Counted from the stretch's first letter, positions 8,399 through 29,747 are shown. The stretch: 47,769 nt of DNA from Promethearchaeota archaeon (GCA_019057795.1 JAHLWS010000081.1:1-47769), one strand, 5' to 3'. A program made the numbers and translations. The notes: generated by a model not told the origin, from the sequence alone.

Positions 8399-8453
8399 TT
8401 TATCCTTTTATACTAACTCAAGAAGAAAACTTATTTTAAAGGTTAAAAATATC

Positions 8454-9485: not shown

Positions 9486-9496
9486 ATTAGCATCTA

Positions 9497-11499: not shown

Positions 11500-11527
11500 A
11501 AATGGGAAAAAAATAATAACTAATATG

Positions 11528-12634: not shown

Positions 12635-12762
12635 TGTTTAAAACACCAAGTTTTAAATCTTATTTAATGAAGCCATAAAATTCTTCAGTTTTATTATTAA
12701 TAATATCCATTATATTTTGTTTTTATAGAGAATTGGGTAATTATATTTTATGTAATTTATAT

Positions 12763-13566
12763 TTATGGATTAAATTTATAATTCTTATTAATAATTAACC
12801 AATTTTGATATTGAAAATTATCATATTTCTGATAATATTTTTTAACTAATTTAATACAGTCAGGGTAAATTTTGTAAAAATTATAATTCAATTCCTCAAA
12901 TAAGTCAAAAATATCTCTTAAGAATACATGTGCGCCAATAAAGGTTCCGCCATACTCGAATTGAATTATATTAACTTGAATATTATTAAATAATGTTTTT
13001 CCACCCTTTAGTACTTCAAATTCATGTCCTTCAACATCAATTTTCATATAATCAATAAATTTTATATCATTTTCACGGCAATAATTTTCTAATGTATCAA
13101 GTTGGATTTTTTCTTTTTGCTGTTGTGGAATTTTCCCATAACGTTCATCTAATCCTTTTCTTTGATATAAGGAATTCAATCCTGAACCTTTTTTGAAAAT
13201 ATGTATAAATTGCTCCTTCTTAGCTGAACTTAAACCAATATTATTACAAATAACATTAGGGGGAAAATTATTATTTATCAATTTCTTAAAAGTATATTTA
13301 CTTGGCTCAAAACAATGAATATTTAATCTTTTATTTGTATTTAAAACAAACTTTGTCCATTGACATACATTTGCTCCAATATCAAATAAAACACTACGAT
13401 TTCCAATATTACGCTGTAAAAAGCGCATCTCTCCATTTGTAATCATATTATCATTGTTTTCTCCATTGTATCTATCGATATAACGCTTGAAAAAGTTATA
13501 GATTTTTGGATTCCGTGGTATAATTTTTATTAATAAATTATAAAAATTTATTTTAATTTTACTCAT
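12763..13566 (-). CDS. FkbM family methyltransferase
   Basis: FDIGANV, FEP, MKIDVEGHEFEVL and IQFEY motifs; ATG at 13566 follows GGAG. Confidence 0.9.
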   Translation of the reverse strand: MSKIKINFYNLLIKIIPRNPKIYNFFKRYIDRYNGENNDNMITNGEMRFLQRNIGNRSVLFDIGANVCQWTKFVLNTNKRLNIHCFEPSKYTFKKLINNNFPPNVICNNIGLSSAKKEQFIHIFKKGSGLNSLYQRKGLDERYGKIPQQQKEKIQLDTLENYCRENDIKFIDYMKIDVEGHEFEVLKGGKTLFNNIQVNIIQFEYGGTFIGAHVFLRDIFDLFEELNYNFYKIYPDCIKLVKKYYQKYDNFQYQNWLIINKNYKFNP

Positions 13567-13848
13567 ATTGTTCTCCAACAATTAAATTTTATATTTGCAA
13601 ATTTATAGTGAAGAAATTTAATTTGCCTTAATCTAAAAATATATTTAAAATTTGTATATAAACTTGCGAGGGAAATTATATGGAGCAGAATAATTTAATT
13701 GTCTAAATAAATAAAAAGTGCTGTAGCAGATACTTCTTTCTCAGAAACTATTCAAACTTAAATTAATAAAATATTAACCCCTTATGAAAATCAATTAATT
13801 TAATCCATAACTCATAATATTAAGAAAATACCCTTTAATTTTAAATAT

Positions 13849-14958
13849 ATGAAAGTTATAGCAATAATGCCAAAATTGTTAGATTATTTGGTTTCAGCAA
13901 TTATCGAAGGATTATATAAAAATAATGTGAATATAATTGCATCCGAACCAGGAAATAACGTCAGAAAGGTTTATTCAAAAAAAGAGATAATAGAACACTC
14001 CAAAGATGCCGATTACATTCTGGTACTTACAGGAAAAGTTAAGGGAAATATCCCTCCGAAATATTTTCTCTTAGATAAAATAAATAGACCGAACATAACA
14101 GCCTTTATAGATGGAAGTGAATGGACTTATTCAAGCTTCCCGGAAAAAAATCAAATAATTGAAAGCCTGAAAAATCCAATAAGGAGAAAAGGCAAAAAAT
14201 GGATAAATAAAAGAATGTTTAATTATTGTACATGGTATTTTAAAAGAGAATGTTACCCTGAAGATGCCAAAAAAGGAATTATACCTCTATTATTCGCTGC
14301 AGAAGATAATTATTTTGGAAACTATGATTATGAGAAAAATATAGATGTTTTTTGTTCATTTAGACAAAAAGGAACTGGTTTAAGGCAAAAAGTAGAAAAT
14401 ATATGTAGAAAATTAAAGAGAAAAGGGTATAATATCGTTATTAAAAGTGGGTTATCATACGAAAAATATAAGAAATTAATTTCATCTTCTTATATCAGTA
14501 TTGATGCTTGGGGTGGGGGAGATTGTAATGCTAGAATTTGGGAAATCTTTGCTAACAAAAGCTGTTGTTTTTCTCAAAAATATAATATTCTCTTTCCACA
14601 TAGTTTTACAGATGGATACAATTATGTTGAGTATTCAACCATTGAAGAGTTTGAAGATAAATTAAGATATTATTTAAAGAATAAAGAAAAATGTTTAGAA
14701 ATAGCAGAAAGAGGATATCAACACTTATTAAAATATCATACTTCAAAACAGAGAGCTAAACTAATATTAGATGTTTTGGAAAACGAAAATAAAACAAAAA
14801 AATTTGATTATAATAAAAAACATTCTGTGGGAAAAATTTTTTATTTAAGCGTGATTTTAAATAGCTTTGTTAAAGATCCACGGAATATTATTAGATATTT
14901 AATGAATGTGTTTCAAGAATTAAAATTTAGGATTCGGAAAAATAAAATAAAAAAATAA
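13849..14958 (+). CDS. glycosyltransferase-like protein (Glyco_trans_1_2-like)
   Basis: GGGDCNARIWE; F.DG..YVEY...LRYYL....IAERG..H..KYHT motif. Confidence 0.7.
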   Translation: MKVIAIMPKLLDYLVSAIIEGLYKNNVNIIASEPGNNVRKVYSKKEIIEHSKDADYILVLTGKVKGNIPPKYFLLDKINRPNITAFIDGSEWTYSSFPEKNQIIESLKNPIRRKGKKWINKRMFNYCTWYFKRECYPEDAKKGIIPLLFAAEDNYFGNYDYEKNIDVFCSFRQKGTGLRQKVENICRKLKRKGYNIVIKSGLSYEKYKKLISSSYISIDAWGGGDCNARIWEIFANKSCCFSQKYNILFPHSFTDGYNYVEYSTIEEFEDKLRYYLKNKEKCLEIAERGYQHLLKYHTSKQRAKLILDVLENENKTKKFDYNKKHSVGKIFYLSVILNSFVKDPRNIIRYLMNVFQELKFRIRKNKIKK

Positions 14959-15034: not shown

Positions 15035-16000
15035 CTAGGCATTTAGTTTTATGAATATATCTTCTAGACTTGTTTCTAATTCTTTAATTTGCTTAATAGG
15101 ATATTTTTGAAGGATTCCAAATATTTTTGGATAGAAATTTCGATCTTGAATATTAAAATATACAATGTCTTTATTACTTTCTATATTGCTAACATAATTT
15201 AAAGTACTTAATTCATCAGTTAATTCTATAATTTTATCTAAACCGATCTTTATTTGAATTTTGATTTCTTTTTGAAGGAATTTTACAAAATTTTCTTTTG
15301 TATCAATTTTTATAATACTCCCTTGTTTAAGAAAAGCAATCTTACTACACATAGATTCTACTACATTCATTTGATGTGAAGTAATAAATATCGTTTTTTT
15401 AAGATTTGTTAGTACATTCATTATTTCTTTAACTATTATTGGATCTAGTCCTAACATTGGTTCATCTAAAAATAAAATTTTAGGGTCTATTAATAAAATC
15501 CTCGCCAATGCTAATTTTACTTTCATACCACTTGAGTAGGTCTCTACCAACTGATTTAACTTACTTGTTAAACCCAATATTCCAATGATATCCTTGATTT
15601 TCTTTTCATAATCACTTATATTATAGATTTTAGAGAAAAATTTTAAATTTCTATAACCTGTTAATCTATAATAAATCATTTCATTTCCAAGCATCAAGCC
15701 TACATTCTTTTTAATAAAATACCGTTCTTTTAAGATATTTCTACCAAGAACCTTGGCATAACCCTCTGATGGTTGCAATAAAGTCGTTAGAATGGATACC
15801 AAAGTTGTTTTACCTGCTCCATTAGGTCCAAGTAGTCCAAATATTTCTCCCTCCTTGATCTTTAAATTTATATTATTTAATGCTGTAAGTTTTTCAGCTT
15901 TACCTCTCATCTTGTATCTTTTTGTTAAATTAAATGTTTCTATTACATAATTTTCATCCATTGATTCATTTTCCTTAGGTATATTACTATTTGTTGTCAT
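15035..16000 (-). CDS. ABC transporter ATP-binding protein
   Basis: Walker A GPNGAGKT, signature YSSGM, Walker B LFLDEP; ATG at 16000 lies directly after the permease stop. Confidence 0.9.
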   Translation of the reverse strand: MTTNSNIPKENESMDENYVIETFNLTKRYKMRGKAEKLTALNNINLKIKEGEIFGLLGPNGAGKTTLVSILTTLLQPSEGYAKVLGRNILKERYFIKKNVGLMLGNEMIYYRLTGYRNLKFFSKIYNISDYEKKIKDIIGILGLTSKLNQLVETYSSGMKVKLALARILLIDPKILFLDEPMLGLDPIIVKEIMNVLTNLKKTIFITSHQMNVVESMCSKIAFLKQGSIIKIDTKENFVKFLQKEIKIQIKIGLDKIIELTDELSTLNYVSNIESNKDIVYFNIQDRNFYPKIFGILQKYPIKQIKELETSLEDIFIKLNA

Positions 16001-16001
16001 A

Positions 16002-16835
16002 TTAGTATCCAGATATTCCAAATTTATCATAGAATGTATTAAAAAAATATACAGAAAAAATAGGCAAAATTATTGTACCTCCAACAACTACAATGATGTG
16101 TATAGGTGTTAGAAAGGTTATAGCTAAATTATAATCAATTCCCATTAACCAAGAAATCCGTATTATATCAATAAAATAATATAAAGGATTTAATAAAATA
16201 ATGAATTGGATAACTTCAGGAAAAATTTGTAAAGGATAACTTATACAACTCAACCAGAATAAGAATGTCAATCCAGTATTGACTACACTATAAATACCTT
16301 CTTTAGTAATCATCAGTATCCCCATTATTAATCCTAAACATCCAAATAAGATTGCTAAAGATAGAAATGAAAATATAACAAGAAAGAGATAAAAAATGTT
16401 TATTGGAAATAATATATAGGCTATAATAAAGAAAAAGATAAAGGGAATACTTATTAATATGATTTCAGCTATGAGAAAACCAAATAAAAGGACATACCGA
16501 TTTATAGGGGCAACCATTAAAGCTTGTAGAGTTTTCCAATACTTTTCTGAATTAAATAAATGTGAAAAACTGAGTACAATTCTTCTTAAAAATTGAATGC
16601 AGAAGGCAATAAATAAGAATAGAATAAAATTTAGACCTGTCCAATATCCGAATTGATAATCCTCTCTTATTGTAAATATTACGTTAAAAATTATTAATGG
16701 CATCAAAATCTGGATGAAAGGAGCAAAATATCGAGTAAAAATTGATAATTTAAATCTAGCTTCAAGATAAATATTTCTTTCTACTAAAGCATTAATTTGC
16801 TTTATATTAGTTCTTAAAGATTTTTTTGATACCAT
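16002..16835 (-). CDS. ABC-2 type permease
   Basis: About six hydrophobic segments; YPL..FP and LNPLYYFIDIIR motifs; coupled to the ATPase gene. Confidence 0.85.
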   Translation of the reverse strand: MVSKKSLRTNIKQINALVERNIYLEARFKLSIFTRYFAPFIQILMPLIIFNVIFTIREDYQFGYWTGLNFILFLFIAFCIQFLRRIVLSFSHLFNSEKYWKTLQALMVAPINRYVLLFGFLIAEIILISIPFIFFFIIAYILFPINIFYLFLVIFSFLSLAILFGCLGLIMGILMITKEGIYSVVNTGLTFLFWLSCISYPLQIFPEVIQFIILLNPLYYFIDIIRISWLMGIDYNLAITFLTPIHIIVVVGGTIILPIFSVYFFNTFYDKFGISGY

Positions 16836-18211: not shown

Positions 18212-18490
18212 AATATTTTAACATTATTTATGTGGTGCGTTTTGCTAATTCGAGAGTTTACCTATAATTAGGTCATCTATTCTGTTGTTGATAAATCGGG
18301 GTATGAACATGGGGTCATTGAATGGACTTCTTTCTTCACTGGGATTTTGGTCGAGTTTTATAGAACAAAAAACCCATGAAGCCGAAGATATAAAACTCCC
18401 TATTGATTTTGATAATAATCCAAAAAATAAAAACCTTGTTAGGATATATGATAAGGTTAAACTAAATGAAAATTTTTAAATGAAAATTCA

Positions 18491-18688
18491 GTTATCTTGT
18501 TCCATGATACAAATATATATGAAGGTGTTATACGATTTTTCGGTGAGTTAGACTTGCCAAAATATAATTTTACTCATTCTTTTGGATTAGGGGATGTGTC
18601 AAAAAATAAAGAATTAATTTCAAAGATTAAAGAGATATGGTATATACCTCAAGAGTTCAAGCTTAGAACAATAAAAGAAGCTCAATAA
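18491..18688 (+). pseudogene. C-terminal relic of a methyltransferase
   Basis: VILFHDT...GV.RFF.EL...FTHSFGLG resembles the Methyltransf_24 C-terminus; N-terminal part missing. Confidence 0.5.
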
Positions 18689-18873
18689 TTAACCTTAAGC
18701 GGTCTGGATAAAAATCTGGATAAAAAAGGTATTTTCAGATGATTGCGTGATATTCTTAGAATATCATCCAGATAAGAATAGTTAATACAAAATTTTAATT
18801 ATTTCACTAACTTCTAATAAATATTCGAGGTATATTGAAATAAATATATATCATAATACTTTTTTTCACCGAC

Positions 18874-18901
18874 AATCTTAAATCTTAAATCTTAAATCTT
18901 A
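18874..18901 (+). repeat. (AATCTTA)4 perfect tandem repeat upstream of the inositol synthase genes
   Basis: Four perfect 7-bp copies ending 42 bp before the ATG at 18944. Confidence 0.9.
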
Positions 18902-18943
18902 TAATTTATTTATTTTATAATTAGTATCAAATTTATAGAGTCG

Positions 18944-20008
18944 ATGGTCATGGGCAAAATTAAGATTGGAATTATCGGAATTGGAAATTGTGCAAGCGCT
19001 TTAGTCCAAGGTATAGAATATTATCGAGATTCTAATAAAAGTGGATTACTTCGACCTAATCTTGCGGGTTATTATATTTCTGATATTCAAGTCGTAGCAG
19101 CGGTGGATGTATCTGAAAATAAGGTAGGGAAGAACATTTCGGAAGCAATTAAAGCAAACGAATTGGATGTAGTGGTTGATTTTCATAAAAATTTTAATGT
19201 TCTGGTCGTTATGGGCGATATTCTCGATGGTGTCATTAGTGAAACGGAAAAAAATATTAAACCGGCAAATCAAAACCCAATAAATGTTGCAAAATATTTT
19301 AAATCGACTGGTGTAGAGATAGTATTATGTTTATTACCTTCTGGGGCTGATAACGCCGTTAGATTTTACGCAAACGAAGCAATTAAAGCTGGTTGCGCTT
19401 TTATTAATGCAACACCTACAAATGTCGCAACTGATAAAGAATATGCTAATAAATTCCATGATGCAGGTTTACCTTTAATTGGAGATGATTTACAAGACCA
19501 ATTTGGTGCAACAATTTTACATAAAATGATACTTCAACAAATGCTTGATCTAGGAATAGATATAAAAGAAAGCTATGCTTTGGATGTAGGTGGCGGAGCT
19601 GAAAGTTTAAACACGATTTACCGAACGCGAGAAACAAAACGAAAAATTAAAAGCATGTCTGTAGCGAGAGCCTTAAATATTGACGCTCCAATTGTTGCAG
19701 GCACTTCTGATTGGGTTGAATTTCTCGGTAATAAAAGGAATTCTATGCTCTGGATTGTTGGTAAAGGCTTTATGGGATCAGAAATAATAATGGATATTAA
19801 GATTCAAACTGAAGATGGTCCTAATGGGGGCTCCGTATTAGCAGATGTGATTCGCGTGACTAAAATAGCAATAAATCAAAGTGCTGCGGGATCTATTGAT
19901 GAAATTTCCGCTTACGGGTTTAAAAACCCACCGAAATCTCCGAAAACTCCGGCTGAAGCCAGTAAGAATTTAGCTAATTTTATATTAGGTATAAGAAAGG
20001 AGGAATAA
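18944..20008 (+). CDS. myo-inositol-1-phosphate synthase homolog, divergent copy
   Basis: GIGNCASALVQG, GCAFIN, IGDD and FKNPP motifs; several conserved motifs substituted. Confidence 0.8.
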   Translation: MVMGKIKIGIIGIGNCASALVQGIEYYRDSNKSGLLRPNLAGYYISDIQVVAAVDVSENKVGKNISEAIKANELDVVVDFHKNFNVLVVMGDILDGVISETEKNIKPANQNPINVAKYFKSTGVEIVLCLLPSGADNAVRFYANEAIKAGCAFINATPTNVATDKEYANKFHDAGLPLIGDDLQDQFGATILHKMILQQMLDLGIDIKESYALDVGGGAESLNTIYRTRETKRKIKSMSVARALNIDAPIVAGTSDWVEFLGNKRNSMLWIVGKGFMGSEIIMDIKIQTEDGPNGGSVLADVIRVTKIAINQSAAGSIDEISAYGFKNPPKSPKTPAEASKNLANFILGIRKEE

Positions 20009-20013
20009 AATCC

Positions 20014-21189
20014 ATGGAAAATAATTCAAAGATTAATTCAGAATTTAACGATGTTTCTGATAAAAAAGAAATTCGGATCGCCTTAGCTGGGCTTGGTAAT
20101 TGTGCATCTGCTTTAATTCAAGGTATTGAATTTTACAAAAACATCAAGGAAGAAGACATGTATGTTAATGGGTTGATGAACCCTAGTATTGGTGGATATC
20201 TTCCACGGCATATTAAGATAGTTGCTGCTTTTGATGTATCTACAACAAAAATCAATAAAGATGTTTCAGAGGCAATTTATGCGGAACCTAATTGCTGTCA
20301 TAAGATTGTAAATCCAGAGGAAATGCCAAAGACAGGAGCTTTATGTTACCCCGGACCAATTTCAGATGGATGTTATGTAAGTAAAGATGGAAGAATATCA
20401 ACATTTGATTATTTTAAAGTATATGATGAGAATAAAATAATGTCTGTTGATATTGCTCAAATGCTTAAAGAAAATAGGGCTGAAATTCTAATTAATTTTT
20501 TACCCGTTGGAAGTCATAACGCTTCTAGAATATACGCTCAAGCAGCACTTGATGCAGGTTGTGGATTTATAAATGGGATTCCTGAATTCATCGTGTCTGA
20601 ACAAATTGAGGGCGACAAAGATTGGGTTGCTGAATTCGAAGCTAAAGGGTTACCCTGTGCTGGTGATGATATTAAATCTCAAGTTGGTGCTACAATTGCA
20701 CATCGAGTTTTGGCTAAGATGTTTTTAGATCGGGGAGTAGTTGTAAATGATACGTATCAGTTAAATATCGGAGGTAATGGCGATTTTTATAACATGAAAT
20801 TGGAAAAGCGTTTAACCACTAAGCGAAAATCAAAGACTTCTGCAGTTGCTTCCGTTCTACCATATCCAATTAACTGCCGAATTGGTCCAAGTGATTTTGT
20901 TCCTTTTCTTGAAGATAAAAAAATTTGTTATATTAGGATAAATGGTACGACATATGGAAATTTACCGTTAGTCTTAGATGTAAAAATTAGGGTTGAGGAT
21001 TCTCCTAATTCGGCAGGAGTTATGCTAGATATAATCCGTGTTATGAAACTTGCCTTAGATAGAGGAATTTCGGGAATTTTAGAAAGTGTAAGTTCTTTTA
21101 GTTTTAAACATCCACATATTCAACCACCTTCAGATATAATTGCTAAACAATGGGTTTCAGAATTTATCGAAGGCAAACGCGAGCGCTAA
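20014..21189 (+). CDS. ino1: myo-inositol-1-phosphate synthase
   Basis: GLGNCASALIQG, GDDIKSQVGAT, QLNIGGNGDF and EDSPNSAG motifs; AGGAGG SD. Confidence 0.9.
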   Translation: MENNSKINSEFNDVSDKKEIRIALAGLGNCASALIQGIEFYKNIKEEDMYVNGLMNPSIGGYLPRHIKIVAAFDVSTTKINKDVSEAIYAEPNCCHKIVNPEEMPKTGALCYPGPISDGCYVSKDGRISTFDYFKVYDENKIMSVDIAQMLKENRAEILINFLPVGSHNASRIYAQAALDAGCGFINGIPEFIVSEQIEGDKDWVAEFEAKGLPCAGDDIKSQVGATIAHRVLAKMFLDRGVVVNDTYQLNIGGNGDFYNMKLEKRLTTKRKSKTSAVASVLPYPINCRIGPSDFVPFLEDKKICYIRINGTTYGNLPLVLDVKIRVEDSPNSAGVMLDIIRVMKLALDRGISGILESVSSFSFKHPHIQPPSDIIAKQWVSEFIEGKRER

Positions 21190-21258
21190 TCGCTTTAATT
21201 TATTTTATTTTAAAAATTATTTTTCTTAGATTATTTAATTAATAGATTATTTTTAATA

Positions 21259-22050
21259 TTGGTGCATAGTGTGGAAAGCGTTATTTTAGCAGCGGGATTT
21301 TCTTCTCGATTCAATTTTGGAGATAGTTCATTCAAAAAGTTTCTCTTACCGCTCAAGAAAACAATCATACTAAATTATGTAATTACCGGGATGTATTTTG
21401 CGGGGATTAGGAAAATTAATATTGTTGTTGATGACGCGGTTGATAAATCACAAGTCGTTAGTTGTTGTTATGATTTTGGCAAAGAAATCAATTTAGATTT
21501 TGAGGATTTAAAAATTAATTTAATTGAAAATAAGTATTCTGAAAGAGAAAATGGATATAGTTTATATTTAGGTGCAAAAGCAGTATCATCTAAAAGTTTT
21601 GTGTTATCTATGGCAGATCATATTTTTTCAGAAAACATCTACACTGAACTTTTATCTAATTATAACAACGATGATATAATCTTAGCTACAGATCCTATGA
21701 GCATTAAAGGAATTTACGATTTAGAGGATTGTACTAAAGTTTATGGCGAAAATTTCTACATAAAGAAGATAGGAAAGCAAATCAGTAATTATAATAGACT
21801 AGATATGGGTGTTTTTATTATGAAAACTGATATAGTTCAAGAAACTTCACAAAGTATTGAAAAAAGTCGTGAAAAGTTTGGAGTTTCAGATATAGTTATT
21901 TCTGCTATTAATTTAAATTTAAAAGTTTCTTATTTTGATTTTCCTAATACAATTTGGGTTGATGTAGATAATGACTTTGAATATGAAAAGCTAAAGAGAA
22001 ATTTTGGCGAATCAAACCAATTCAAACCTTTTAATTTGGATATTTTTTAA
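21259..22050 (+). CDS. NTP transferase, CTP:inositol-1-phosphate cytidylyltransferase (IPCT)-like
   Basis: ILAAGFSSRF, ENGYSL, MADHIF, EDCTKV, IGK and WVDVD motifs; directly downstream of ino1. Confidence 0.75.
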   Translation: MVHSVESVILAAGFSSRFNFGDSSFKKFLLPLKKTIILNYVITGMYFAGIRKINIVVDDAVDKSQVVSCCYDFGKEINLDFEDLKINLIENKYSERENGYSLYLGAKAVSSKSFVLSMADHIFSENIYTELLSNYNNDDIILATDPMSIKGIYDLEDCTKVYGENFYIKKIGKQISNYNRLDMGVFIMKTDIVQETSQSIEKSREKFGVSDIVISAINLNLKVSYFDFPNTIWVDVDNDFEYEKLKRNFGESNQFKPFNLDIF

Positions 22051-22061
22051 TATTCTTACTA

Positions 22062-23288
22062 TTAAATGATTTTTAAAAATTTTAATAATCGTTCAGTAGA
22101 ATTTCCATCAATATTTTTGTGATATAATCTCCTTGTTTTTAACCTTCTCTCTTCAAAGTCTTTTTCGATATTATGAACATTTTTTATCGCTTTAATCAAT
22201 TCTTTTCCCGTGAATAATAACGGTCCAGGAGCAATTTGTTTAAAGTCATAATAAAATCCACGCCCCTTTTTCATAAATTCCTCAAAATCGTATGTAAATA
22301 ATAAGATTGGTTTGTTTAATAATAGAAAATCGCAATAAACTGAAGAATAATCCGTAATTAAAATATCTGTTATACATAATAATTCTTGAATATCAGTATT
22401 TTTTGACGCTTTTTTGATATTCGAATAATTCTTAAATTCAATAATTTGTTCAAACATATGTGCTTTCATAATTAATATTGAATTAGAACTCTTTAAAACA
22501 TCATTTAATTCAATTAATTCCTCCTGATTAAACGGTAATTTAGCGGTAAATGAGTTATCTCGGAAAGTTGGTGCGTATAATAAGATTCTTTTAAAATTCT
22601 TAGCTATTTTGTATTTTTTTCTAATTTGAGTTTTTAGTTCTAAATCTTTAGAAAATAAGATATCATTTCTGGGATAGCCAGTGGTAAGTATTTTTTTAGG
22701 CGATATCTGAAAATAATTTACAATAAGCTTTTTATCTTTTTTGGTGCCTGAAGGAGTAACAAAATAATCAATAAAATTTTCATTCACAATCTTCAATTTA
22801 AGATATTTTGCTAGTTTACCATACTTAATAGGGCCATGGGCCGAGCTATTTCTTTTATTTTGCACACCATGCCAAGTACAAACAAAGATAGTATTAGGAG
22901 AAAAATCAATAGGTAATACATCAAATACACCATGAGTACTGAAAATGAATTTCGCCTTTCTTAATAGCTTAATCGTATTTAGATCAAATTTATAAACTAC
23001 CTGATATCCTTTAGCTTTAAGCTCCTCTAATAAATTACGAGAATTTGTTATCCACATTACTTTATATTCAGTATTTTTAACTAAATATTGAAAAATATAT
23101 TTTGTATTATCTATAAATGCCTTTCCTCCATATGCACTCAATAAAATCAAGTTTGCATCGACTTTATTACTAAACAACTTTGAAATTGTTTTAATAACTA
23201 ATGAATATCCAATTTCTTGGGTAAATTGATATAATTTCGTTGATTTTAAAAATGTGAACTTATTAAGAATTTTATTAAAAATATTCAT
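22062..23288 (-). CDS. CDP-glycerol glycerophosphotransferase (TagB/TagF) family protein
   Basis: TWHG, GYPRND, LYAPTFRD and LITDYSSV motifs. Confidence 0.9.
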   Translation of the reverse strand: MNIFNKILNKFTFLKSTKLYQFTQEIGYSLVIKTISKLFSNKVDANLILLSAYGGKAFIDNTKYIFQYLVKNTEYKVMWITNSRNLLEELKAKGYQVVYKFDLNTIKLLRKAKFIFSTHGVFDVLPIDFSPNTIFVCTWHGVQNKRNSSAHGPIKYGKLAKYLKLKIVNENFIDYFVTPSGTKKDKKLIVNYFQISPKKILTTGYPRNDILFSKDLELKTQIRKKYKIAKNFKRILLYAPTFRDNSFTAKLPFNQEELIELNDVLKSSNSILIMKAHMFEQIIEFKNYSNIKKASKNTDIQELLCITDILITDYSSVYCDFLLLNKPILLFTYDFEEFMKKGRGFYYDFKQIAPGPLLFTGKELIKAIKNVHNIEKDFEERRLKTRRLYHKNIDGNSTERLLKFLKII

Positions 23289-23314
23289 TTCTTCAATCCT
23301 CCTTATTCCCTTCT

Positions 23315-24505
23315 TTAAAATAGAATTTGTTTAATTAAGTTCGAAAACTCGTCTTTACTTCTTTCTATGGAAAATTGACTAAAAATCTCTTTAATGTCAT
23401 TATCAGTAATTTTATGAGACCATTTTATCATATAGTTTATCGCTTCTATCCATAAAGATAATTTTAAGGGAACTACCTTAAGAAAATCTGTTTTAATGAA
23501 AAAAGAATTTGCTCCACAATTGGGCGAAGATATCACGGGAGTTTTATTTACAAAACTTTCTATGATAATTCTTCCAAATGCTTCCGTGCAAAATGTAGGA
23601 ACTAAAGTTAATTGAGAACTTTGATATAATTTGTTTAATTCTCTTTTACTAATTTGATCATAGTTAATAATTTTGTTATCAACCTTCTCAAATTTAGCAG
23701 TAGGTATCTTGCTTCCTACAACAACAATTTTATAATCTTTTGGAACGAACCGGGATAATTTTAAAACAAAATCTAATCCTTTATGTGAAGCGTTGAATTT
23801 TGGGATTACAAATAATAACTGATTTTTCTTTTCTGAGGATTCTAGAGGTGAATAGTTTTTTATTGGAGTAATATTTGCTACCTTGATTTTTTTTGAGTCT
23901 ACATTGTTTGATAAAATCTTCCTCATTAATTCTGAAGCAACCAAATTTACCGTTGCTTTATTTATTAGAAACAAATTAATTTGGCAAACGAAATATCGAA
24001 ATTTATAAATTATCGTAGAAATATCTGAGCTTAGGGAATATTGCCATCCTTGGACTTTATTTCCAATTAATACCCTTAGCGATCTCCAATAATTAATACA
24101 ATTATTACATGTTTTTTTGTTTTTTAATCCCGGGCATGCTTTTCCATATCCAATTATATCAACATGTTTAGGACACACATCAGAAGTATCGCGTACAATA
24201 CTAATTATGGGTATTTTTTTAATATTAGCAGAAGCAATAGCAGGAAAGGTAATTCTGCTCTGAGTTATTATAATATTTGGTTTAAATTTATTTATTATTT
24301 TTAATATTTTTGGTATAAAAACAAAATAACCTACGCCTAAAGGATTTAAGAATTTTTTAATTAACTTATTTGTATTAAGCGCCAAGATTTTAAGTTGAAA
24401 CTCTTTATTTTCTTTTAATCCATTGAAAATATTTAAAAAGCTTTTGGCAGCACCCCCAGCTGAAGTTTTCTCATAAGGGACAGTTACCACTAGAATTTTG
24501 ATCAT
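23315..24505 (-). CDS. GT4 glycosyltransferase with Cys-rich insert
   Basis: GGA N-terminal loop, HKG, EAFGRIIIES; CP..C..CNNC insert. Confidence 0.8.
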   Translation of the reverse strand: MIKILVVTVPYEKTSAGGAAKSFLNIFNGLKENKEFQLKILALNTNKLIKKFLNPLGVGYFVFIPKILKIINKFKPNIIITQSRITFPAIASANIKKIPIISIVRDTSDVCPKHVDIIGYGKACPGLKNKKTCNNCINYWRSLRVLIGNKVQGWQYSLSSDISTIIYKFRYFVCQINLFLINKATVNLVASELMRKILSNNVDSKKIKVANITPIKNYSPLESSEKKNQLLFVIPKFNASHKGLDFVLKLSRFVPKDYKIVVVGSKIPTAKFEKVDNKIINYDQISKRELNKLYQSSQLTLVPTFCTEAFGRIIIESFVNKTPVISSPNCGANSFFIKTDFLKVVPLKLSLWIEAINYMIKWSHKITDNDIKEIFSQFSIERSKDEFSNLIKQILF

Positions 24506-24767
24506 TTTTTACTACAAGTTTTGTACAATTGTTTAAAATTTTAATTTGAATTTAGTATTTAATTAAGGTATAGAGTGATTGGAAATTGTTAAATATTTTT
24601 ATAACATAAATTCAACCCCTTGCATTATAGATTTATAAAAATAATGTAAACATAAAATCAATCAATTTTAAATTTCAGTTATTCAGAGTTTAACTTAATA
24701 TTAAGATCAGCCTAAAATTTTAATAATTAACTTAAAATCCAATAGTTAATTAATTCTAATTAATATC

Positions 24768-25919
24768 ATGATTGATTTAATACCGCTTGAAAAAGTAATT
24801 AAAGAAAATCCCCGAGTTGAAGAACTTGAAAAACAGGGATATATAATAAAGCCGGAAAAAATTGACAGTTATTTAGAAGATTTTAAAGGGCGAACTACAA
24901 CTTTACCAAATAAAGAATATTGGAATGAAAAGATAGTCTTAATAACGGGCATTAGCGGTTTTGCGGGAAGCCATTTAGCTGAACAATTATTAGATCTAGG
25001 CTGTGAAGTACATGGTACAATCCGTAGGCACGCAGTTCCTATGTATGAAAATATTGAACATTTAAGGGGTAATATATTTCTTCATGAAGCGGATATTACT
25101 AGCGCTGAAAGAATTTTATCTATCTTTGAAGAAATACAACCTAACGCAGTATTTCATCTCGCTGCTGAGTCTTTTGTTCCAACTTCATTTCGAGAACCCG
25201 TTAGAGTTACACATAATAACATAATAGGCACCATTAAATTGTTTGAAGCAGCGCGTAGATTCAATTCGGGACTAGAGAGTTTACAAGTTGCGTGTAGTAG
25301 CGAACAATATGGGTTAGTGGATCCTAGAGAAGTACCAGTAACAGAAGATTTAAAGAAAAATCCCTTCCGACCGAGAAGTGTTTATGGAATATCAAAATGT
25401 GCCACTGAACAAATAGCATGGTTATATCATAATTCGTATGGAGTACCGAGTATCATTTCTCGTGGCTTTAATCACGAGGGTCCTAGAAGGGGGATTCAAT
25501 TTGTCACTAGCGTAATCCATAGACAAATTGTAGAAATTTTAGAAAATAAAAGGGATAAATTTGTTATTGGAAACCCCAACGCTATTAGAGATTTTACACA
25601 CGTTAAAGATACAGTTAATGCTTACATTATACTTAGTGAGAAAAAGAAATTTGGAGAACCATTTAATGTGTGTTCAGGAAAAGGAATAACAGTCGCTGAC
25701 TATGTTAAATTAGCGAAGAAAATCTACAATATCGACGCAGATGTGTTTATAGACCCTCAACGTATGCGACCTAGCGAAGTTCCCTTATTAATTGGCCTGA
25801 ACGATAAGATATTTAGCGAAACAGGCTGGAAACCGGTAAGATCAATAGTAGAAATTATAAAAGAAGGAGTAGAATACTTCCAAGCTCATCCAGAAATGCT
25901 TGGAATCGAAGCTCATTAA
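24768..25919 (+). CDS. gmd: GDP-mannose 4,6-dehydratase family protein
   Basis: ITGISGFAGSHL, HLAAESFV, SSEQYG, YGISK, FNHEGPRRG and RPSEV motifs. Confidence 0.75.
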   Translation: MIDLIPLEKVIKENPRVEELEKQGYIIKPEKIDSYLEDFKGRTTTLPNKEYWNEKIVLITGISGFAGSHLAEQLLDLGCEVHGTIRRHAVPMYENIEHLRGNIFLHEADITSAERILSIFEEIQPNAVFHLAAESFVPTSFREPVRVTHNNIIGTIKLFEAARRFNSGLESLQVACSSEQYGLVDPREVPVTEDLKKNPFRPRSVYGISKCATEQIAWLYHNSYGVPSIISRGFNHEGPRRGIQFVTSVIHRQIVEILENKRDKFVIGNPNAIRDFTHVKDTVNAYIILSEKKKFGEPFNVCSGKGITVADYVKLAKKIYNIDADVFIDPQRMRPSEVPLLIGLNDKIFSETGWKPVRSIVEIIKEGVEYFQAHPEMLGIEAH

Positions 25920-26023
25920 TTATTATCTAATTTTTTATAAATTCGTATTTTGAGGGTTTTACATTAATCCTTTTTTTACATCTTTCTTTTACAGTATTTA
26001 AAATTAGAAAAAATAAGATAAAA

Positions 26024-26749
26024 TTATAAGTTCAATACATTTTTTTGAATTTTAATTAATTCCATTATACCCCTTTCTCCGACTTCGATTATATCGTTTA
26101 ATTTCTCCTTGTTAAACGGTAATCCTTCCGCAGTTCCTTGAATTTCGATCAATTCTAAATCTTCGTTTGCTACTAAGTTAAAATCAACGTCTACTTTAGA
26201 GTCTTCTTCGTAATTTAGGTCTAAAAGAATTTTGTTGTTCTTAAGACCAAGCGATATACCTGCAGTGACCTTGTAATCGGGAAATTCGTATATTCTTTGT
26301 TCGTTGTATAAGTAATTGATGGCGTCAAAAACGGCAACAAAAGCTCCTGTGATCGAGGCACATCTTGTACCACCATCGGCTTGTATGACATCGCAATCAA
26401 TTCTAATCGTACGTTCACCAATTTTGTCGTAATTGAATGCGGCTCTCATACTCCTCCCTATTAAACGCTGTATTTCGTGAGTTCTACCCTTTACCCTTCT
26501 CTCTCTTTCTCTTGAGTTTCTATTTTGAGTTGCTCTTGGCAACATATTATATTCTGCGGTTATCCAACCCGTTCCTGTATCTACCAAAAATCTCGGAACA
26601 TTTTCCAGAACGGAGGCAGTAACGATTACTTTTGTGTTTCCTTGAGTGATTAACACGGAACCTTCGGGGTACTTTAAAAAGTTCCGTTCGATAGTTGTTT
26701 TCCTAATTTCATCAAGAGTTCTTCCGTCAAGTCTTACATTTCCAAGCAT
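26024..26749 (-). CDS. rph: ribonuclease PH (bacterial type)
   Basis: R.DGR, GWITAEYNMLPRAT, GRTHEIQRLIGRS, DCDVIQADGGTR and EIQGTAEG motifs. Confidence 0.9.
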   Translation of the reverse strand: MLGNVRLDGRTLDEIRKTTIERNFLKYPEGSVLITQGNTKVIVTASVLENVPRFLVDTGTGWITAEYNMLPRATQNRNSRERERRVKGRTHEIQRLIGRSMRAAFNYDKIGERTIRIDCDVIQADGGTRCASITGAFVAVFDAINYLYNEQRIYEFPDYKVTAGISLGLKNNKILLDLNYEEDSKVDVDFNLVANEDLELIEIQGTAEGLPFNKEKLNDIIEVGERGIMELIKIQKNVLNL

Positions 26750-26898
26750 TTAAATAAAACCAGATTTTTCTCAATTGTATTTTTTGATATATGAAATGAG
26801 TTTAAAAATTATTTTCTACACTTAATGAAAAAAAAAAATGATTAAAATACTTTTAGAAAAGCAAAGAGAAATAAAAGATTGGTATTCTTATACGAATT

Positions 26899-28008
26899 TT
26901 ATTTAAGAGGGTACGTTCCTAAGATTTTTTGCCAAATAACGCTTGATTTCATTTGCTCGAGCGCTTTTTTCGCTTTAGGATCGTTTTTGTCAGCTTCAAA
27001 ATCCATAAAGAAGATGTATTCCCACCTTCCTTTTTTTCTTGGTCTAGACTCGATTTTTGACAAATTGATCTCAGCGTCTGAAAATATTTTTAAAACCCAA
27101 TATAAAGCTCCAGGTATGTGTTTAGTTACAAACACGATTGATGTTTTCATTTTTTCAGCTTTTAATGGATTTTCTAATTTAGAAATAATTAAAAATCTTG
27201 TAAAGTTAGAAGGGTCATCTTCTATATTCGAGTTCAGAACTTTCAAATCGTATATACTCGCAGCAAAATCAGTGCCAATCGCCGCATAAGATTTATCTGC
27301 TAACTTTTTAATTCTTCGCATAGCTTCGGCAGTTGAGCTAATATCCATTAAATTTGCATTTGGTAAGTTGCTTTTTAGCCACGATTTGGCTTGAGCAAAC
27401 GCTTGGGGGTGTGAAAAAATGTTTTTTATGAGAGAAATTTCTGATTCTTTTAAGCCTATTAAATTCTGGATGACTCTCAACTCGACTTCTCCGTGAATAA
27501 ACAGTTCCTTTTCAATAAATAAATCGAGCGTCTCTCGCACGGTTCCATAAAAGCTATTTTCAATCGGGACAATCCCGTAATCTAATATATCTTTTTCAAC
27601 ATTATCAAAGATCTCTGAAGTTGAGTTGCACGGAATGAATTGTGTTCCAGCTTTAGCAAAAGACTCAAGGGCTGCCTGGTGCGTGAAAGTGCCCATTGGG
27701 CCTAAATATCCGACTTTAGTAACTGTGTCTTGAATAGCCTTACTTGCACTAATAATTTCTTTCCAGATGGCTTCCATACTTTCTTTTTCGAATATTGTTG
27801 ATTTATTTTTGATTCTCTCGATTATTTCCATTTCCCTTTTGGGTTGAATTATTTCTAAATTCAGATCTTTCTTTAAATTTCCAATTTTAATTACGATGTT
27901 TCCTCTTTTATTCAACAGATCAACGATTTGATCGTCAATTTCGTTAATTCTTTTTCTGGTCTCTTCTAAATCTTCTTTATAATTCTGCTCTTTCCTCAAA
28001 TTAATCAC
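26899..28008 (-). CDS. pheA: bifunctional chorismate mutase/prephenate dehydratase with ACT domain
   Basis: AroQ N-terminus (R..I..ID), YLGPMGTF, PIENS, SHPQA, NFTRF and ESRP motifs. Confidence 0.92.
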   Translation of the reverse strand: MINLRKEQNYKEDLEETRKRINEIDDQIVDLLNKRGNIVIKIGNLKKDLNLEIIQPKREMEIIERIKNKSTIFEKESMEAIWKEIISASKAIQDTVTKVGYLGPMGTFTHQAALESFAKAGTQFIPCNSTSEIFDNVEKDILDYGIVPIENSFYGTVRETLDLFIEKELFIHGEVELRVIQNLIGLKESEISLIKNIFSHPQAFAQAKSWLKSNLPNANLMDISSTAEAMRRIKKLADKSYAAIGTDFAASIYDLKVLNSNIEDDPSNFTRFLIISKLENPLKAEKMKTSIVFVTKHIPGALYWVLKIFSDAEINLSKIESRPRKKGRWEYIFFMDFEADKNDPKAKKALEQMKSSVIWQKILGTYPLK

Positions 28009-28054
28009 ACTATAATTATAATAATTATTAAATAAGTATTTACAAAATAAATAA

Positions 28055-29731
28055 TTACAAAAGTTTTTGCAAATTTAATTCTAATCCGGCAACGGGGAAC
28101 TCCAGTTTAAAGTTTAACAATACTTCTGGATGGATTTCTCCAATCTCTCCAACTTTTTTACCATTTACATAGATATCTCCATAACGACCGCTAATATAGC
28201 TAGGGTTCTTCCCGGGCTTAATTTCATATTTATCATAAAGCCCAAGAGCAGTCATTATGAAATCTAAAGTCGACCTTATTTCTGTAAAATCAGCGTCTTC
28301 GTGGTACGATGTCGCTGAAAGGTGAATTTCTCTTTTTGCGCCGGTTTCTTCTTCTTTCGAAAGTAAAACGACATCTCCAACTTCAAAAATTCTAATTGGT
28401 TTCTCTTCGGATCTGTTAAATCGTATCGTTTCCATTAATTTAGGCAGTATTGAAGTTCGCGTGGTATCGTATTCTTTTGATACAGGGTTAGCAATATGAA
28501 TTAATTTGGATTCATCAATTTTTTTTTTCATATAATCGAATTGTTTTTCAGAATTTGATAAAATGAAATTAAGAACTTCTAAATATCCTGCTCCAACCAT
28601 AATTCTTCTTATTTTATTAGAGAACGATTGAATAGGGTGATATTCTCCTACGCATCCTTCTCGAATGGTTTTTGGTAAATTAAAATAACCATAACCGATC
28701 GCAACTTCTTCAGTGAAATCAACTGGATGCATTATGTCACCTCGAAAGGCAGGAACATAAATGTCTAAATATCCTTTTTTCTTGGATCTTTTAGCCTCCA
28801 TCCTACATTTTTGAAAACACTTAATCATTTCAGCGATTGATAAATTCAGACCAATGTAATCGTTAATGTAGTCAATTTCAACTTCCCATTTTTTTGAATC
28901 TAAATTTGGGGTATTAATTTCTTTTTCTCCTTCATAATTTACTTTAACACTTTCAATTTTCGCTCCCATGTCTGATAAAGTCGTAGATAAGATGTTTAAA
29001 GCAAGATTTACGGCGTTAAAATCGGTACCAGTCAAATCTAAGAATAGATTTTTCGTTTCTTCAGTTACAGTTGTAAGAACTCCGTTTATTATTGGAGGAA
29101 ACGAAAGAACTTCGTTATTGCTATCAAAAATTACTGGGTAAACTTCTTTCCCTTCTAAAATGGGAGCGTATTCAATGCCTTTATCGTGAAGCAGTAAAAT
29201 TTCTTCTAAGTTCATGGAATACCCATCTCCATGCAAAGGCGTAAAACTTACTGAATCTGGTTCCACGGCAGTATATCTGTATGGGGGTTTTACTTTGTCT
29301 AAGTCGTGTACTCCAATCGCAACTTTCTTTCTATCTCTTCCAATGGCCCAGTGAAGGTGCTCTTGAATGGTCATTAAGGTAGCTACCTCGTCCTCATCTA
29401 AATCAATATCCCGAATTATTCCACATACTATGTAAGGTCTTACTTTTTTTACGCTAGGGTCTACATTCATCACAATATCACTTGGTGTTATGTCGAATGA
29501 AGGTACACCTAGTTCAATTTCGTAATAACCTTTAAGAGTCCTCGCTATACCTTCTGGACTAGAGAAATCAGGTCGGTTTGGATTATACTCAACTTTAACT
29601 TTTTGTTCTTCCTCGTTAATATCTTCCAAATCTAAACCTATCCACTGCAAATCGTACTCTAATTCTTTTAGATCTAATTTTTTTCCAACTAATCTTTCGA
29701 GTCTTTCAATTTTTAATTCGAGTGTTGGTAT
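28055..29731 (-). CDS. pheT: phenylalanyl-tRNA synthetase beta subunit (archaeal type), ATA start
   Basis: NRPD, AIGVHD, LSFPPIIN and GEIHP motifs; frame extends to ATA CCA ACA (matching the usual MPT N-terminus) 6 nt after GAGGTGA. Confidence 0.92.
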   Translation of the reverse strand: MPTLELKIERLERLVGKKLDLKELEYDLQWIGLDLEDINEEEQKVKVEYNPNRPDFSSPEGIARTLKGYYEIELGVPSFDITPSDIVMNVDPSVKKVRPYIVCGIIRDIDLDEDEVATLMTIQEHLHWAIGRDRKKVAIGVHDLDKVKPPYRYTAVEPDSVSFTPLHGDGYSMNLEEILLLHDKGIEYAPILEGKEVYPVIFDSNNEVLSFPPIINGVLTTVTEETKNLFLDLTGTDFNAVNLALNILSTTLSDMGAKIESVKVNYEGEKEINTPNLDSKKWEVEIDYINDYIGLNLSIAEMIKCFQKCRMEAKRSKKKGYLDIYVPAFRGDIMHPVDFTEEVAIGYGYFNLPKTIREGCVGEYHPIQSFSNKIRRIMVGAGYLEVLNFILSNSEKQFDYMKKKIDESKLIHIANPVSKEYDTTRTSILPKLMETIRFNRSEEKPIRIFEVGDVVLLSKEEETGAKREIHLSATSYHEDADFTEIRSTLDFIMTALGLYDKYEIKPGKNPSYISGRYGDIYVNGKKVGEIGEIHPEVLLNFKLEFPVAGLELNLQKLL

Positions 29732-29747
29732 TTTTTTTCACCTCTTT

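Follow-up and report, generated by a model that had tools for sequence, protein, structure and literature searches.

In the synthesis of wall teichoic acids in Bacillus and Staphylococcus (TagB, TarF, TagF and TarL, with TagD or TarI), a small cytidylyltransferase makes a CDP-alcohol, and a GT-B enzyme of the PF04464 family, bearing two catalytic histidines, moves the alcohol phosphate onto a lipid-linked glycan at the cytoplasmic face; the product is exported by an ABC-2 transporter. The alcohol phosphate known to be transferred by TagF-family enzymes is that of glycerol or ribitol. CDP-inositol is produced by MIPS (myo-inositol-1-phosphate synthase) and the IPCT cytidylyltransferase in the IPCT/DIPP synthase pathway (Archaeoglobus AF0263, PDB 2XME and 4MND; Thermotoga TM1418, PDB 4JD0) and, to our knowledge, is known only as the precursor of di-myo-inositol phosphate and of a few lipids. 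The ether-lipid synthase of Rhodothermus marinus represents such a CDP-inositol-dependent inositol-lipid route. TagF-like phosphotransferases are also found together with a glycosyltransferase in ABC-transporter-dependent polysaccharide loci, as in the capsule polymerases Cps3D and Bcs3, a family whose product is an alternation of sugar and polyol phosphate (PMC5974469). Finally, a proposed Bacteroidetes cluster of NTP-transferase, CDP-alcohol phosphatidyltransferase and HAD genes uses CDP-inositol outside solute synthesis, MIPS being clustered there with a stand-alone NTP transferase (PMC9246714). Here we describe a conserved Asgard gene set that most likely makes CDP-inositol and hands inositol phosphate to a TagF-family transferase within a surface-sugar locus.

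The gene set was found in a 47,769-nucleotide stretch of a Promethearchaeota genome (GCA_019057795.1, JAHLWS010000081.1; hereafter the window). Three genes on the plus strand, encoding a MIPS-like paralogue (MIPS_A, 18944-20008, 354 aa; PF01658, 55.9 bits), a canonical MIPS (MIPS_B, 20014-21189, 391 aa; PF01658, 103 bits; TIGR03450, 348 bits) that begins 5 bp past the MIPS_A stop, and a stand-alone IPCT-like cytidylyltransferase (21259-22050, 263 aa), converge on two minus-strand genes encoding a TagF/TagB-family CDP-alcohol phosphotransferase of GT-B fold (22062-23288, 408 aa; PF04464 Glyphos_transf) and a GT4-type glycosyltransferase (23315-24505, 396 aa; Glycos_transf_1 and Glyco_trans_1_4). 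Translation of the cytidylyltransferase gene may start at a TTG codon (21259) or at one of two GTG codons (21262 and 21271). Its TAA stop codon (22048-22050) and the stop codon of the tagF-like gene (22062-22064, minus strand) are separated by a spacer of 11 bp (22051-22061), as read from the sequence; this five-gene arrangement is precisely that proposed in the initial annotation. The GT4 gene lies directly upstream of the tagF-like gene on the same strand, with a 26-bp gap, and the two probably form one transcription unit; GT4 orthologues also adjoin TagF in two other genomes (G007, 56%; L054, 50%).

The setting had been described as a glycan locus, and the Pfam scans bear this out. The remainder of the island (376-14958) encodes glycosyltransferases including a GT11, CmcI-type and FkbM-type methyltransferases, a UDP-sugar dehydrogenase, an epimerase, an APS kinase and an ATP sulfurylase (PAPS synthesis), and a Phosphodiest-family protein. 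Between this region and the module, an ABC-2 exporter of the Wzm/Wzt or TagG/TagH type is encoded on the minus strand (15035-16835; PF00005 and PF01061), with the ATPase at 15035-16030 and the permease at 16002-16835. It is a candidate for the export of a finished lipid-linked glycan, and an ABC-2 permease and ATPase also lie about 10 kb or less from the module in four other loci (L052, L054, L056 and L058). The right border of the island is an NDP-sugar 4,6-dehydratase/epimerase of the SDR type (24768-25919, plus strand; GDP_Man_Dehyd, 271 bits), a neighbour kept in other genomes: its counterpart adjoins TagF in L048 and is syntenic in G014. The location of the module in a variable glycan island suggests a serotype-like surface diversity in these archaea. 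No RNA family was detected in the window by an Rfam scan.

Profile and PDB matches place the cytidylyltransferase, an NTP_transf_3 protein, nearer to characterised IPCTs than to nucleotidyltransferases for other sugar or alcohol phosphates. Among NCBIfam models it scores best with NF041135, the IPCT half (103.6 bits vs 38.4 bits for the next family), and its sole PDB matches at E ≤ 1e-3 are 4JD0, 2XME and 4MND, all of which are IPCTs. Residues R17, K27 and D120 are invariant in the alignment (A1), with the Arg-Lys spacing of R16, K26 and D112, active-site residues of T. maritima IPCT (as cited in PMC12275187); this equivalence is by spacing and motif only, since the HMMER alignment to 4JD0 omits the N-terminus. 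Because the cytidylyltransferase family also includes phosphocholine, phosphoglutamine and phosphoglycerate enzymes (PMC12275187), the substrate is assigned from context: the co-occurrence with MIPS genes and the existence of a sister, MIPS-linked paralogue point to L-myo-inositol-1-phosphate. The enzyme is not a bifunctional IPCT/DIPP synthase, as no PF01066 domain is present in its 263 residues or elsewhere on the contig. In the IPCT tree, the window-type enzymes form a clade of 13 rows (SH-aLRT 94), and for 10 of these a TagF gene lies within 5 kb, in four different gene orders. Across a branch with a support of 99, the sister clade shows the opposite association: a CDP-OH phosphotransferase gene is within 5 kb in 31/31 cases, and none of the 31 is on a contig with a TagF match.

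The partner enzyme is assigned to the TagF/TagB family on a PF04464 match of 240.6 bits that spans profile positions 9-364 of 367. It matches S. epidermidis TagF (3L7I/3L7M) at E ~1e-36, TarL and Cps3D coming next. The catalytic histidine pair of the family (H444/H584 in S. epidermidis TagF, H300/H433 in TarL) corresponds to H140 and H277: H140, within a TWHG motif, aligns with H444, whereas H277, within K-A-H, falls at most one residue off position 584 when aligned with the H584A mutant chain, and its column does not vary across 34 Asgard TagFs. In the donor-polyol loop, WHG-VQN-K, Q143-N144 occupy the positions of TagF P447-L448. In TagF, P447 and L448 form a small glycerol site, and TarL replaces both, which fits ribitol (PMC10901376). 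The Pro-Leu pair after WHGT is thus missing in the window enzyme, and the use of CDP-glycerol finds no support there. Asgard TagFs adjacent to an IPCT carry a VQNK or ISFK loop, whereas those whose neighbour is a different NTP transferase or a PEP-mutase fusion carry the glycerol-type loop TPIK (WHG-TPI-K), as in TagF. The loop that follows the catalytic histidine (TPIK vs VQNK/ISFK) is therefore a simple candidate sequence marker of donor type in the TagF family. The polymerases TagF, TarL and TarK have an extra N-terminal domain ahead of the GT-B domain (PMC10901376); such a domain is missing from the window enzyme (408 aa), in which the match to GT-B begins at residue 41-43 and whose size is that of the single-addition enzymes TagB and TarF. 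Its best NCBIfam model is TarF (174.5 bits vs a cut-off of 550), and it scores below every NCBIfam equivalog cut-off. This architecture favours an inositol-phosphate-decorated glycan, or a copolymer of sugar and inositol phosphate, and makes a long, plain poly(inositol phosphate) the less likely of the two products initially envisaged.

As the initial annotation had stated, the window contains neither a CDP-alcohol phosphotransferase gene, none of the six PF01066 matches of the genome being on this contig, nor tagD. The only cytidylyltransferase-fold gene of the window (31648-32067, PF01467) was considered as a tagD candidate and rejected, as it encodes an archaeal phosphopantetheine adenylyltransferase (CoaD). 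Extending the search to the whole genome, we found no TagD: the best TIGR01518 match, on contig C49, reaches 46.7 bits vs a cut-off of 165 and adjoins a riboflavin kinase gene, a context that makes RibL, the FAD synthetase of archaea, its most likely identity. The genome likewise yielded no convincing IspD/TarI (PF01128 matches of at most 26 bits, fragments inside larger NTP transferases), no PF03808 match (TagA) and no second TagF, the PF04464 gene of the window being the only one; a single PF00953 gene is present, outside the window. Five of the six PF01066 genes resemble archaetidylinositol-phosphate or DIPP synthases. A DIPPS-type partner elsewhere in the genome would have weakened the proposal, and a CDP-alcohol phosphotransferase of 463 aa is indeed encoded on contig C52; however, it sits with its own MIPS and its own IPCT paralogue (50% identical to the window IPCT), and so does not account for the window genes.

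We then examined whether the linkage between the MIPS, IPCT and TagF genes extends to other genomes. At least 11 more loci, spread over several genera and showing four gene orders, retain it, although these genomes are kin and the counts do not represent independent events. All five genes are present in G007 (69-84% identity), and MIPS_A, MIPS_B, IPCT and TagF are found as a group in L048, L054, L052, G183, G178, G202 and L200, these loci showing four gene orders. Window-type IPCTs were found in 10 of 400 Asgard genomes, all 10 of which have a TagF match. IPCT and TagF are on one contig in eight of them, at a distance of less than 100 bp in five and of 0.4, 2.4 and 14.5 kb in one each; the other two IPCTs are on contigs shorter than 4 kb. 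Departures from the complete module were also seen. In G198 and G200 the IPCT is present with no intact MIPS genes nearby, and a VQNK-loop TagF in L050 stands without IPCT or MIPS over about 17 kb to one side and, up to the contig end, about 9 kb to the other. The bacterial and Heimdall IPCT-like/PF04464 pairs that we checked have no MIPS within 8 kb. In L053, a VQNK-loop TagF has no IPCT within 9 kb; a full module had been predicted for L053 from this loop, and it lies 12-16 kb away on the same contig.

These features suggest that the five genes would constitute a supply-and-transfer module for inositol phosphate. MIPS_B, from its family membership, would convert glucose-6-phosphate into L-myo-inositol-1-phosphate, which the IPCT, judging from homology and gene context, would condense with CTP to give CDP-inositol. 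The TagF-family enzyme would then take CDP-inositol where classical TagF, TagB and TarF take CDP-glycerol, and attach inositol phosphate to a hydroxyl group on the lipid-linked glycan that the adjacent GT4 and other transferases of the island would build; the finished anionic glycan would be exported by the ABC-2 transporter. Restricted to a GT-B domain, the 408-aa enzyme would most likely add inositol-phosphate units one at a time, to decorate the glycan or, in alternation with the GT4, to form a glycosyl-inositol-phosphate repeat, a long homopolymer being less likely. The initial proposal that CDP-inositol is the donor thus gains support from the gene linkage, the lack of TagD/TarI and the separate supply on C52, donor specificity itself being deduced; all the computational checks suggested with it turned out in its favour. 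We put at roughly 0.6 the probability of this scheme, with CDP-inositol as the donor, a lipid-linked glycan as the acceptor of inositol phosphate and the ABC-2 transporter as the exporter. If true, the TagF class of enzymes would gain a new donor and CDP-inositol a new fate, and a first hint would be at hand on Asgard cell-surface glycan chemistry, a field essentially blank so far. In the literature that we searched, which is largely without subscription journals, we found no paper treating CDP-inositol and TagF as one pathway, and none linking Asgard archaea with glycerophosphotransferases or inositol phosphate with TagF-like capsule enzymes.

The initial annotation counted two MIPS genes; both encode PF01658 proteins, but they are not equivalent. 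MIPS_B matches M. tuberculosis Ino1 (1GR0) over its full length (E 3e-89), retains all canonical motifs (GDDxKSQ, GGNxD, the lysine helix and DSPNSAG) and clusters in the tree with stand-alone B-type MIPS of genomes that have no module. MIPS_A also has 1GR0 as its best solved structure (E 9e-62) and keeps the fold and the catalytic lysine positions; however, GDDLQDQ, GGGAESLN and DGPNGGS replace the canonical GDDIKSQ, GGNxDFxN and DSPNSAG, and it also reads AGTSD. These altered motifs surround the NAD and substrate site, and the changes are fixed in 9 module orthologues and in 120/120 of the best database homologues. As MIPS_A proteins form a separate clade (support 100), we regard them, on sequence grounds, as a distinct Asgard subfamily, MIPS-like and not MIPS. 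MIPS_A is an integral member of the module, its gene immediately preceding that of MIPS_B in almost every case, and it could act as an altered cyclitol-phosphate enzyme, as a sensor or as a subunit. The transferred alcohol might differ from plain myo-inositol: starting from the MIPS_B product or from some other sugar phosphate, MIPS_A might yield a distinct cyclitol phosphate (for instance the epimer scyllo-inositol phosphate, or another ring), to be activated and transferred by the same cytidylyltransferase-TagF logic. A precedent exists in Ari2 (6K96), the second-best PDB match of MIPS_A, a five-membered cyclitol phosphate synthase that likewise has no Lys in the GDDxKSQ motif, and the constrained changes, retained lysines and gene order of MIPS_A would fit such a role. 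However, an HTH-like N-terminal extension is present in about half of the MIPS_A family members, which occur singly in genomes lacking the module, a pattern more in keeping with a sensor or regulator than with a step specific to this pathway. Lokiarchaeum ossiferum, for example, has a MIPS_A-type gene alone, with no module within 10 kb. No HTH remnant is found upstream of the window MIPS_A (18212-18943). Moreover, the sister paralogue of the window IPCT, 50% identical to it, is paired with a single canonical MIPS, and we consider a cyclitol other than myo-inositol unlikely. A wider formulation, in which exported surface glycans of Promethearchaeota are built from or decorated with a phosphodiester-linked cyclitol by a CDP-inositol:TagF-type route, not known from any organism, whose chemistry is tuned by the MIPS_A paralogue, as a new enzyme (cyclitol-phosphate epimerase or synthase) or as a metabolite-sensing regulator (HTH-fused in many genomes), is offered as a less probable reading; inositol-phosphoglycans would then be added to the inositol-linked features of the archaea most closely related to eukaryotes.

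It is also conceivable that the genes are mere neighbours, CDP-inositol or inositol-1-phosphate feeding membrane lipids or solutes through CDP-alcohol phosphotransferases encoded elsewhere, and the TagF-like enzyme using CDP-glycerol or another donor from an unrecognised enzyme. Glycan islands collect many unrelated genes, the genome holds the synthase-like PF01066 genes mentioned above, and MIPS_A and MIPS_B are its sole A-type and B-type copies, so that they may also serve inositol-lipid synthesis and not be dedicated to the glycan. Yet the IPCT-TagF adjacency survives four rearrangements in several genera, the link to CDP-OH phosphotransferases is in every case carried by the paralogous IPCT clade, TagD and TarI are missing from the genome, and the glycerol-type Pro-Leu, lost from the polyol pocket here, is kept in the TagF paralogues beside other nucleotidyltransferases; a chance association therefore appears improbable. 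We hold it just as improbable that the acceptor is something other than a glycan, with inositol phosphate placed from CDP-inositol on a membrane lipid (an alternative route to inositol phospholipids or glycolipids) or on a protein. The products of all CDP-inositol consumers described so far are indeed solutes or lipids (DIPP synthase, and the lipid routes treated in PMC9246714), and TagF-family enzymes are monotopic membrane proteins acting on lipid-linked acceptors (PMC10901376), but the probable co-transcription with the GT4 gene and the glycosyltransferases, sugar-nucleotide enzymes and ABC-2 exporter that surround TagF here and in related loci argue for a glycan.

Taken together, the proposed transfer of inositol phosphate to an exported glycan sets this locus beside, and apart from, each of the described systems. 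Compared with the wall teichoic acid pathway, the host is an archaeon without peptidoglycan whose genome has no TagD, TarI or TagA, the cytidylyltransferase has the IPCT/LicC fold and not the TagD fold, the donor would be CDP-inositol, and the polyol loop reads VQN instead of TPL. The TagF-like capsule polymerases, of which both Cps3D and Bcs3 are among the PDB matches of the window enzyme, are large multidomain proteins, exceeding 1100 aa, with CDP-glycerol or CDP-ribitol as donor, whereas the window encodes the TagF domain (408 aa) and the GT4 as two proteins, with inositol as the probable polyol. With the IPCT/DIPP synthase pathway the module would share the step to CDP-inositol, and its IPCT stands alone like the 251-aa 4JD0 chain; however, it has no fused or adjacent CDP-alcohol phosphotransferase, its partner being a TagF-fold enzyme, and its host belongs to a low-GC Asgard lineage and is not a hyperthermophile, in which DIP would be expected. 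The CDP-inositol lipid routes, which the C52 locus resembles, rely on an integral-membrane PF01066 transferase and yield a lipid, whereas the window combines a PF04464 enzyme with a context of glycan assembly.

Five genes of the window form the module: MIPS_A (18944-20008), MIPS_B (20014-21189) and a gene for a 263-aa IPCT-like cytidylyltransferase (21259-22050) lie on the plus strand and converge on a minus-strand TagF-family gene encoding 408 aa (22062-23288), the stops of IPCT and TagF being separated by 11 bp, while a GT4 gene (23315-24505) precedes TagF on the minus strand with a gap of 26 bp. The family assignments agree between Pfam, NCBIfam and PDB, and the positions, families and convergence proposed by the initial annotation were confirmed. 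The window is contig C81 of a genome of 4.95 Mb in 87 contigs; its archaeal-type PheRS, TyrRS, PPAT and DUF1512 genes identify an archaeon, and the closest database proteins come from Promethearchaeota, Lokiarchaeia and other Asgard groups.

The module is embedded in a glycan island (376-25919) with genes for PAPS synthesis, several glycosyltransferases, methyltransferases of the CmcI and FkbM types, one UDP-sugar dehydrogenase and epimerases, plus an ABC-2 permease with its ATPase; to its right are the housekeeping genes for RNase PH, PheA, PheT and PheS. The RNase PH (26024-26749; TIGR01966, 329 bits) is of bacterial type in an archaeal genome and is 85% conserved in a congener. At the left end of the island (376-3493), a 461-aa protein of the Phosphodiest/sulfatase superfamily is encoded between APS kinase and ATP sulfurylase; the same trio adjoins a TagF gene in the genome G013, a sulfotransferase gene adjoins IPCT in the locus L052, and the glycans of these loci are probably sulfated as well. 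Just beyond the island (33993-35270) is an OrfB_IS605/TnpB-like gene with a Cas12f1-like TNB domain, and a related fragment is found near the module in L200. The PheS-PheT-PheA-RNase PH-SDR block is syntenic in the congener G014, with 75-86% identity (window 22062-31283 against L038, contig C135); past the SDR gene, the inositol module is replaced in G014 by another GT4 and a TagF of the TPIK type. The arrangement resembles that of O-antigen or capsule loci, with what seems to be a glycan island of variable content at one fixed place in the chromosome.

The initial annotation had suggested a test for co-occurrence of MIPS, IPCT and TagF across genomes, and this combination recurs in several Asgard loci. 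The congener G007 has the five genes in the same order, with 56-84% identity, and MIPS_A, MIPS_B, IPCT and TagF are found together in L048 (GCA_048941405.1), L054, L052, G183, G178, G202 and L200 (GCA_052626505.1). Partial modules are present in G195, G200 and G203, where the contig is short or the MIPS genes are decayed. On contig C13 of G200 (L056), a 45-aa MIPS_A remnant (5770-5904, 69% identical) lies between a double TagF gene and IPCT, and no MIPS_B was found near this locus; the MIPS genes of the module appear to have decayed in G200. Four gene orders were observed (A-B-IPCT> <TagF; IPCT> <TagF A-B; <B<A TagF> <IPCT; <IPCT<B<A TagF-TagF>), and a linkage that persists through rearrangement usually points to functional coupling. 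Of 400 Asgard genomes scanned, an IPCT of the window type (at least 55% identity) was present in 10, all of which have a TagF; the two genes share a contig in 8 of the 10, the other two IPCTs being on contigs shorter than 4 kb, and they are less than 100 bp apart in 5 of these 8 and 0.4, 2.4 and 14.5 kb apart in the remaining three, counts that overstate independence as the compared genomes are related.

We then asked which other enzymes could supply or consume the activated donor. The TagF-like gene of the window is the only PF04464 gene of the genome. No TagD was found at the cut-off in the genome: the top match scores 46.7 bits against a cut-off of 165, and it adjoins riboflavin kinase, a context that makes it most likely the archaeal FAD synthetase. 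The genome search returned nothing convincing for IspD/TarI and no TagA, and a single PF00953 gene is present, outside the window. In the window itself, the sole PF01467 candidate for TagD is CoaD. Consumption of CDP-inositol by a CDP-alcohol phosphotransferase has a counterpart in this genome: none of its six PF01066 genes is on the contig of the window, but one on contig C52, coding for 463 aa, is bordered by a second IPCT with 50% identity to that of the window and by a third MIPS (L046, 3906-7259), so that this consumer exists with supply genes of its own. Of the two genes that the initial annotation suggested seeking in the genome, tagD and that of DIPP synthase, no TagD reached the cut-off, and a CDP-alcohol phosphotransferase is present with its own IPCT and MIPS. 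A fourth, divergent MIPS-family gene is on contig C77, and the A-type and B-type MIPS of the module are the only such copies in the genome. The C-terminal part of the 463-aa protein is a CDP-OH_P_transf domain; its N-terminal half, ~220 aa, is uncharacterised. The C52-type locus is conserved in ~30 Asgard genomes, in some of which a short AIP-synthase-like CDP-OH enzyme replaces the 463-aa protein, and it could represent a CDP-inositol-dependent lipid or solute route.

The IPCT tree separates these two settings. IPCTs of the window type make up a clade of 13 (SH-aLRT 94), sister to a clade of 31 (branch support 99) whose members all have a CDP-alcohol phosphotransferase gene less than 5 kb away, usually accompanied by a MIPS of the C52 type; no TagF match was found on the contigs of these sister-clade IPCTs (0/31). 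The phylogeny looks like an IPCT duplication after which the two copies came to serve different kinds of transferase, which argues that both paralogues would make the same product.

The TagF enzyme of the window has retained the two catalytic histidines (H140, H277), and its 408 aa correspond to the GT-B domain alone. As polymerases of the TagF family have an extra N-terminal domain (PMC10901376), it resembles the single-addition enzymes TagB and TarF; its best NCBIfam model is TarF, with a score far under the cut-off. The pocket for the donor polyol is formed by the loop after the catalytic His, where P447 and L448 of TagF make the pocket glycerol-sized and are replaced in TarL to fit ribitol (PMC10901376). 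The window enzyme has Q143 and N144 in place of this Pro-Leu pair. The loop reads WHG-V/A-Q/L-N-K in the window enzyme and in the four IPCT-adjacent TagFs closest to it, and HG-ISF-K or a close variant is found both in a second clade of IPCT-adjacent TagFs, which includes fused double-domain proteins, and in very remote TagFs of Heimdall that adjoin IPCT-like genes. Asgard TagFs located beside unrelated NTP transferases and an MFS transporter (G002, G013) have WHG-T-V-I-K, and the rest of their clade, including the G005 TagF beside a PEP-mutase/NTP-transferase fusion, has WHG-T-P-I-K, as TagF. Since the loop types sort by neighbour, the neighbouring nucleotidyltransferase predicts the donor loop in this phylum. 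Two VQNK-loop TagFs (L053, L050) have no IPCT within 8-9 kb. When the loop was used as a test, a complete IPCT/TagF/MIPS_A/MIPS_B module was found further along the L053 contig, 12-16 kb away and with the layout of L052; for L050, no such module was found within the available ~17 kb and ~9 kb, which is a caveat to the prediction.

TagF paralogues were also observed in other species of the genus: one with the glycerol-type TPIK loop beside the PEP mutase/NTP-transferase fusion on contig C64 of G005 (L041, 1-2832), a neighbour that suggests phosphonate activation, and TVIK-loop TagFs with a generic NTP_transf_3 and an MFS transporter on C119 of G002 (L039, 3949-7768) and C7 of G013 (L040, 7756-11127). 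Several different activating enzymes seem to serve as partners of TagF-type enzymes in Asgard archaea. At many module loci there is more than one TagF gene, and these genes belong to different clades (L052, 6439-7632 and 16514-17752; L200, 8667-9863, with L053, 7815-9044; L058; L060); in these, the ISFK-loop enzyme converges on IPCT and the VQNK-loop enzyme is beside an ABC transporter. Fused double-TagF proteins of ~820 aa are encoded in G198, G200 and G202. The two types could reflect a primer/extender division of labour; the lineage of the window has the VQNK type only.

The two MIPS proteins differ. MIPS_B keeps all canonical motifs and clusters with the B-type MIPS that occurs singly and on its own in module-less genomes, and MIPS_A falls in a separate clade (support 100), with GDDLQDQ for GDDIKSQ, GGGxESLN for GGNxDFxN, AGTSD for IGPSD and DGPNGGS for DSPNSAG. 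GDDLQDQ occurs in every one of the 120 best database homologues of MIPS_A (62-92% identity), and the counterparts of GGNxDFxN and DSPNSAG in nearly all of them; AGTSD is fixed in the nine module orthologues, the set compared for this motif. The catalytic lysine positions appear to be retained. An HTH-like N-terminal extension of ~45 aa (ISRMT[IV]xR[IV]KKRN) is carried by 53 of the 120. Members of the MIPS_A-type subfamily occur widely among Asgard archaea, and the extended form stands alone in Lokiarchaeum ossiferum and in a complete Lokiarchaeota genome, a 4.36-Mb contig (L106 and L107, each 10001-11188), where genes for an Arf-like GTPase and for a PGM_PMM_I protein belong to its conserved surroundings. 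A MIPS_A-type protein may be an enzyme-derived transcription factor; in the module, of which it is the least understood member, it may act as a sensor or a subunit, or catalyse the formation of a new product.

Taken together, the most likely reading, to which we give a probability of about 0.6 as a whole, is that MIPS_B would make inositol-1-phosphate and IPCT CDP-inositol, as family membership and context suggest, that the TagF-like enzyme would move inositol phosphate onto a lipid-linked glycan that GT4 and the other enzymes of the island would assemble, and that the ABC-2 transporter would export this glycan. The linkage, the IPCT tree and the donor loop thus support CDP-inositol as the TagF donor, as initially proposed; the poly(inositol-phosphate) product proposed with it is less likely, single additions or a glycosyl-inositol-phosphate repeat being more likely than a homopolymer.

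We wondered whether such pairs exist beyond the Asgard module. Scanning the genome collection with the IPCT alignment returned mostly long bacterial ORFs of ~440-480 aa with an IPCT domain, presumably fused IPCT/DIPPS-type genes. In MAGs of Caldithrix abyssi, Gemmatimonadales, Ignavibacteria and Heimdallarchaeota (L163, 6881-9760; L173, 7989-9842; L189, 4831-6662; L155, 7959-10085), a stand-alone IPCT-like gene immediately adjoins a PF04464 gene, with no MIPS within 8 kb of these pairs. A CDP-inositol/TagF-type pathway was not found described in the literature searched, which leaves out most subscription journals, and the CDP-inositol consumers described or proposed are all PF01066 enzymes (PMC9246714, PMC12275187). 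If our reading is true, the module would extend polyol-phosphate transfer of the teichoic-acid type by a new, archaeal variant.
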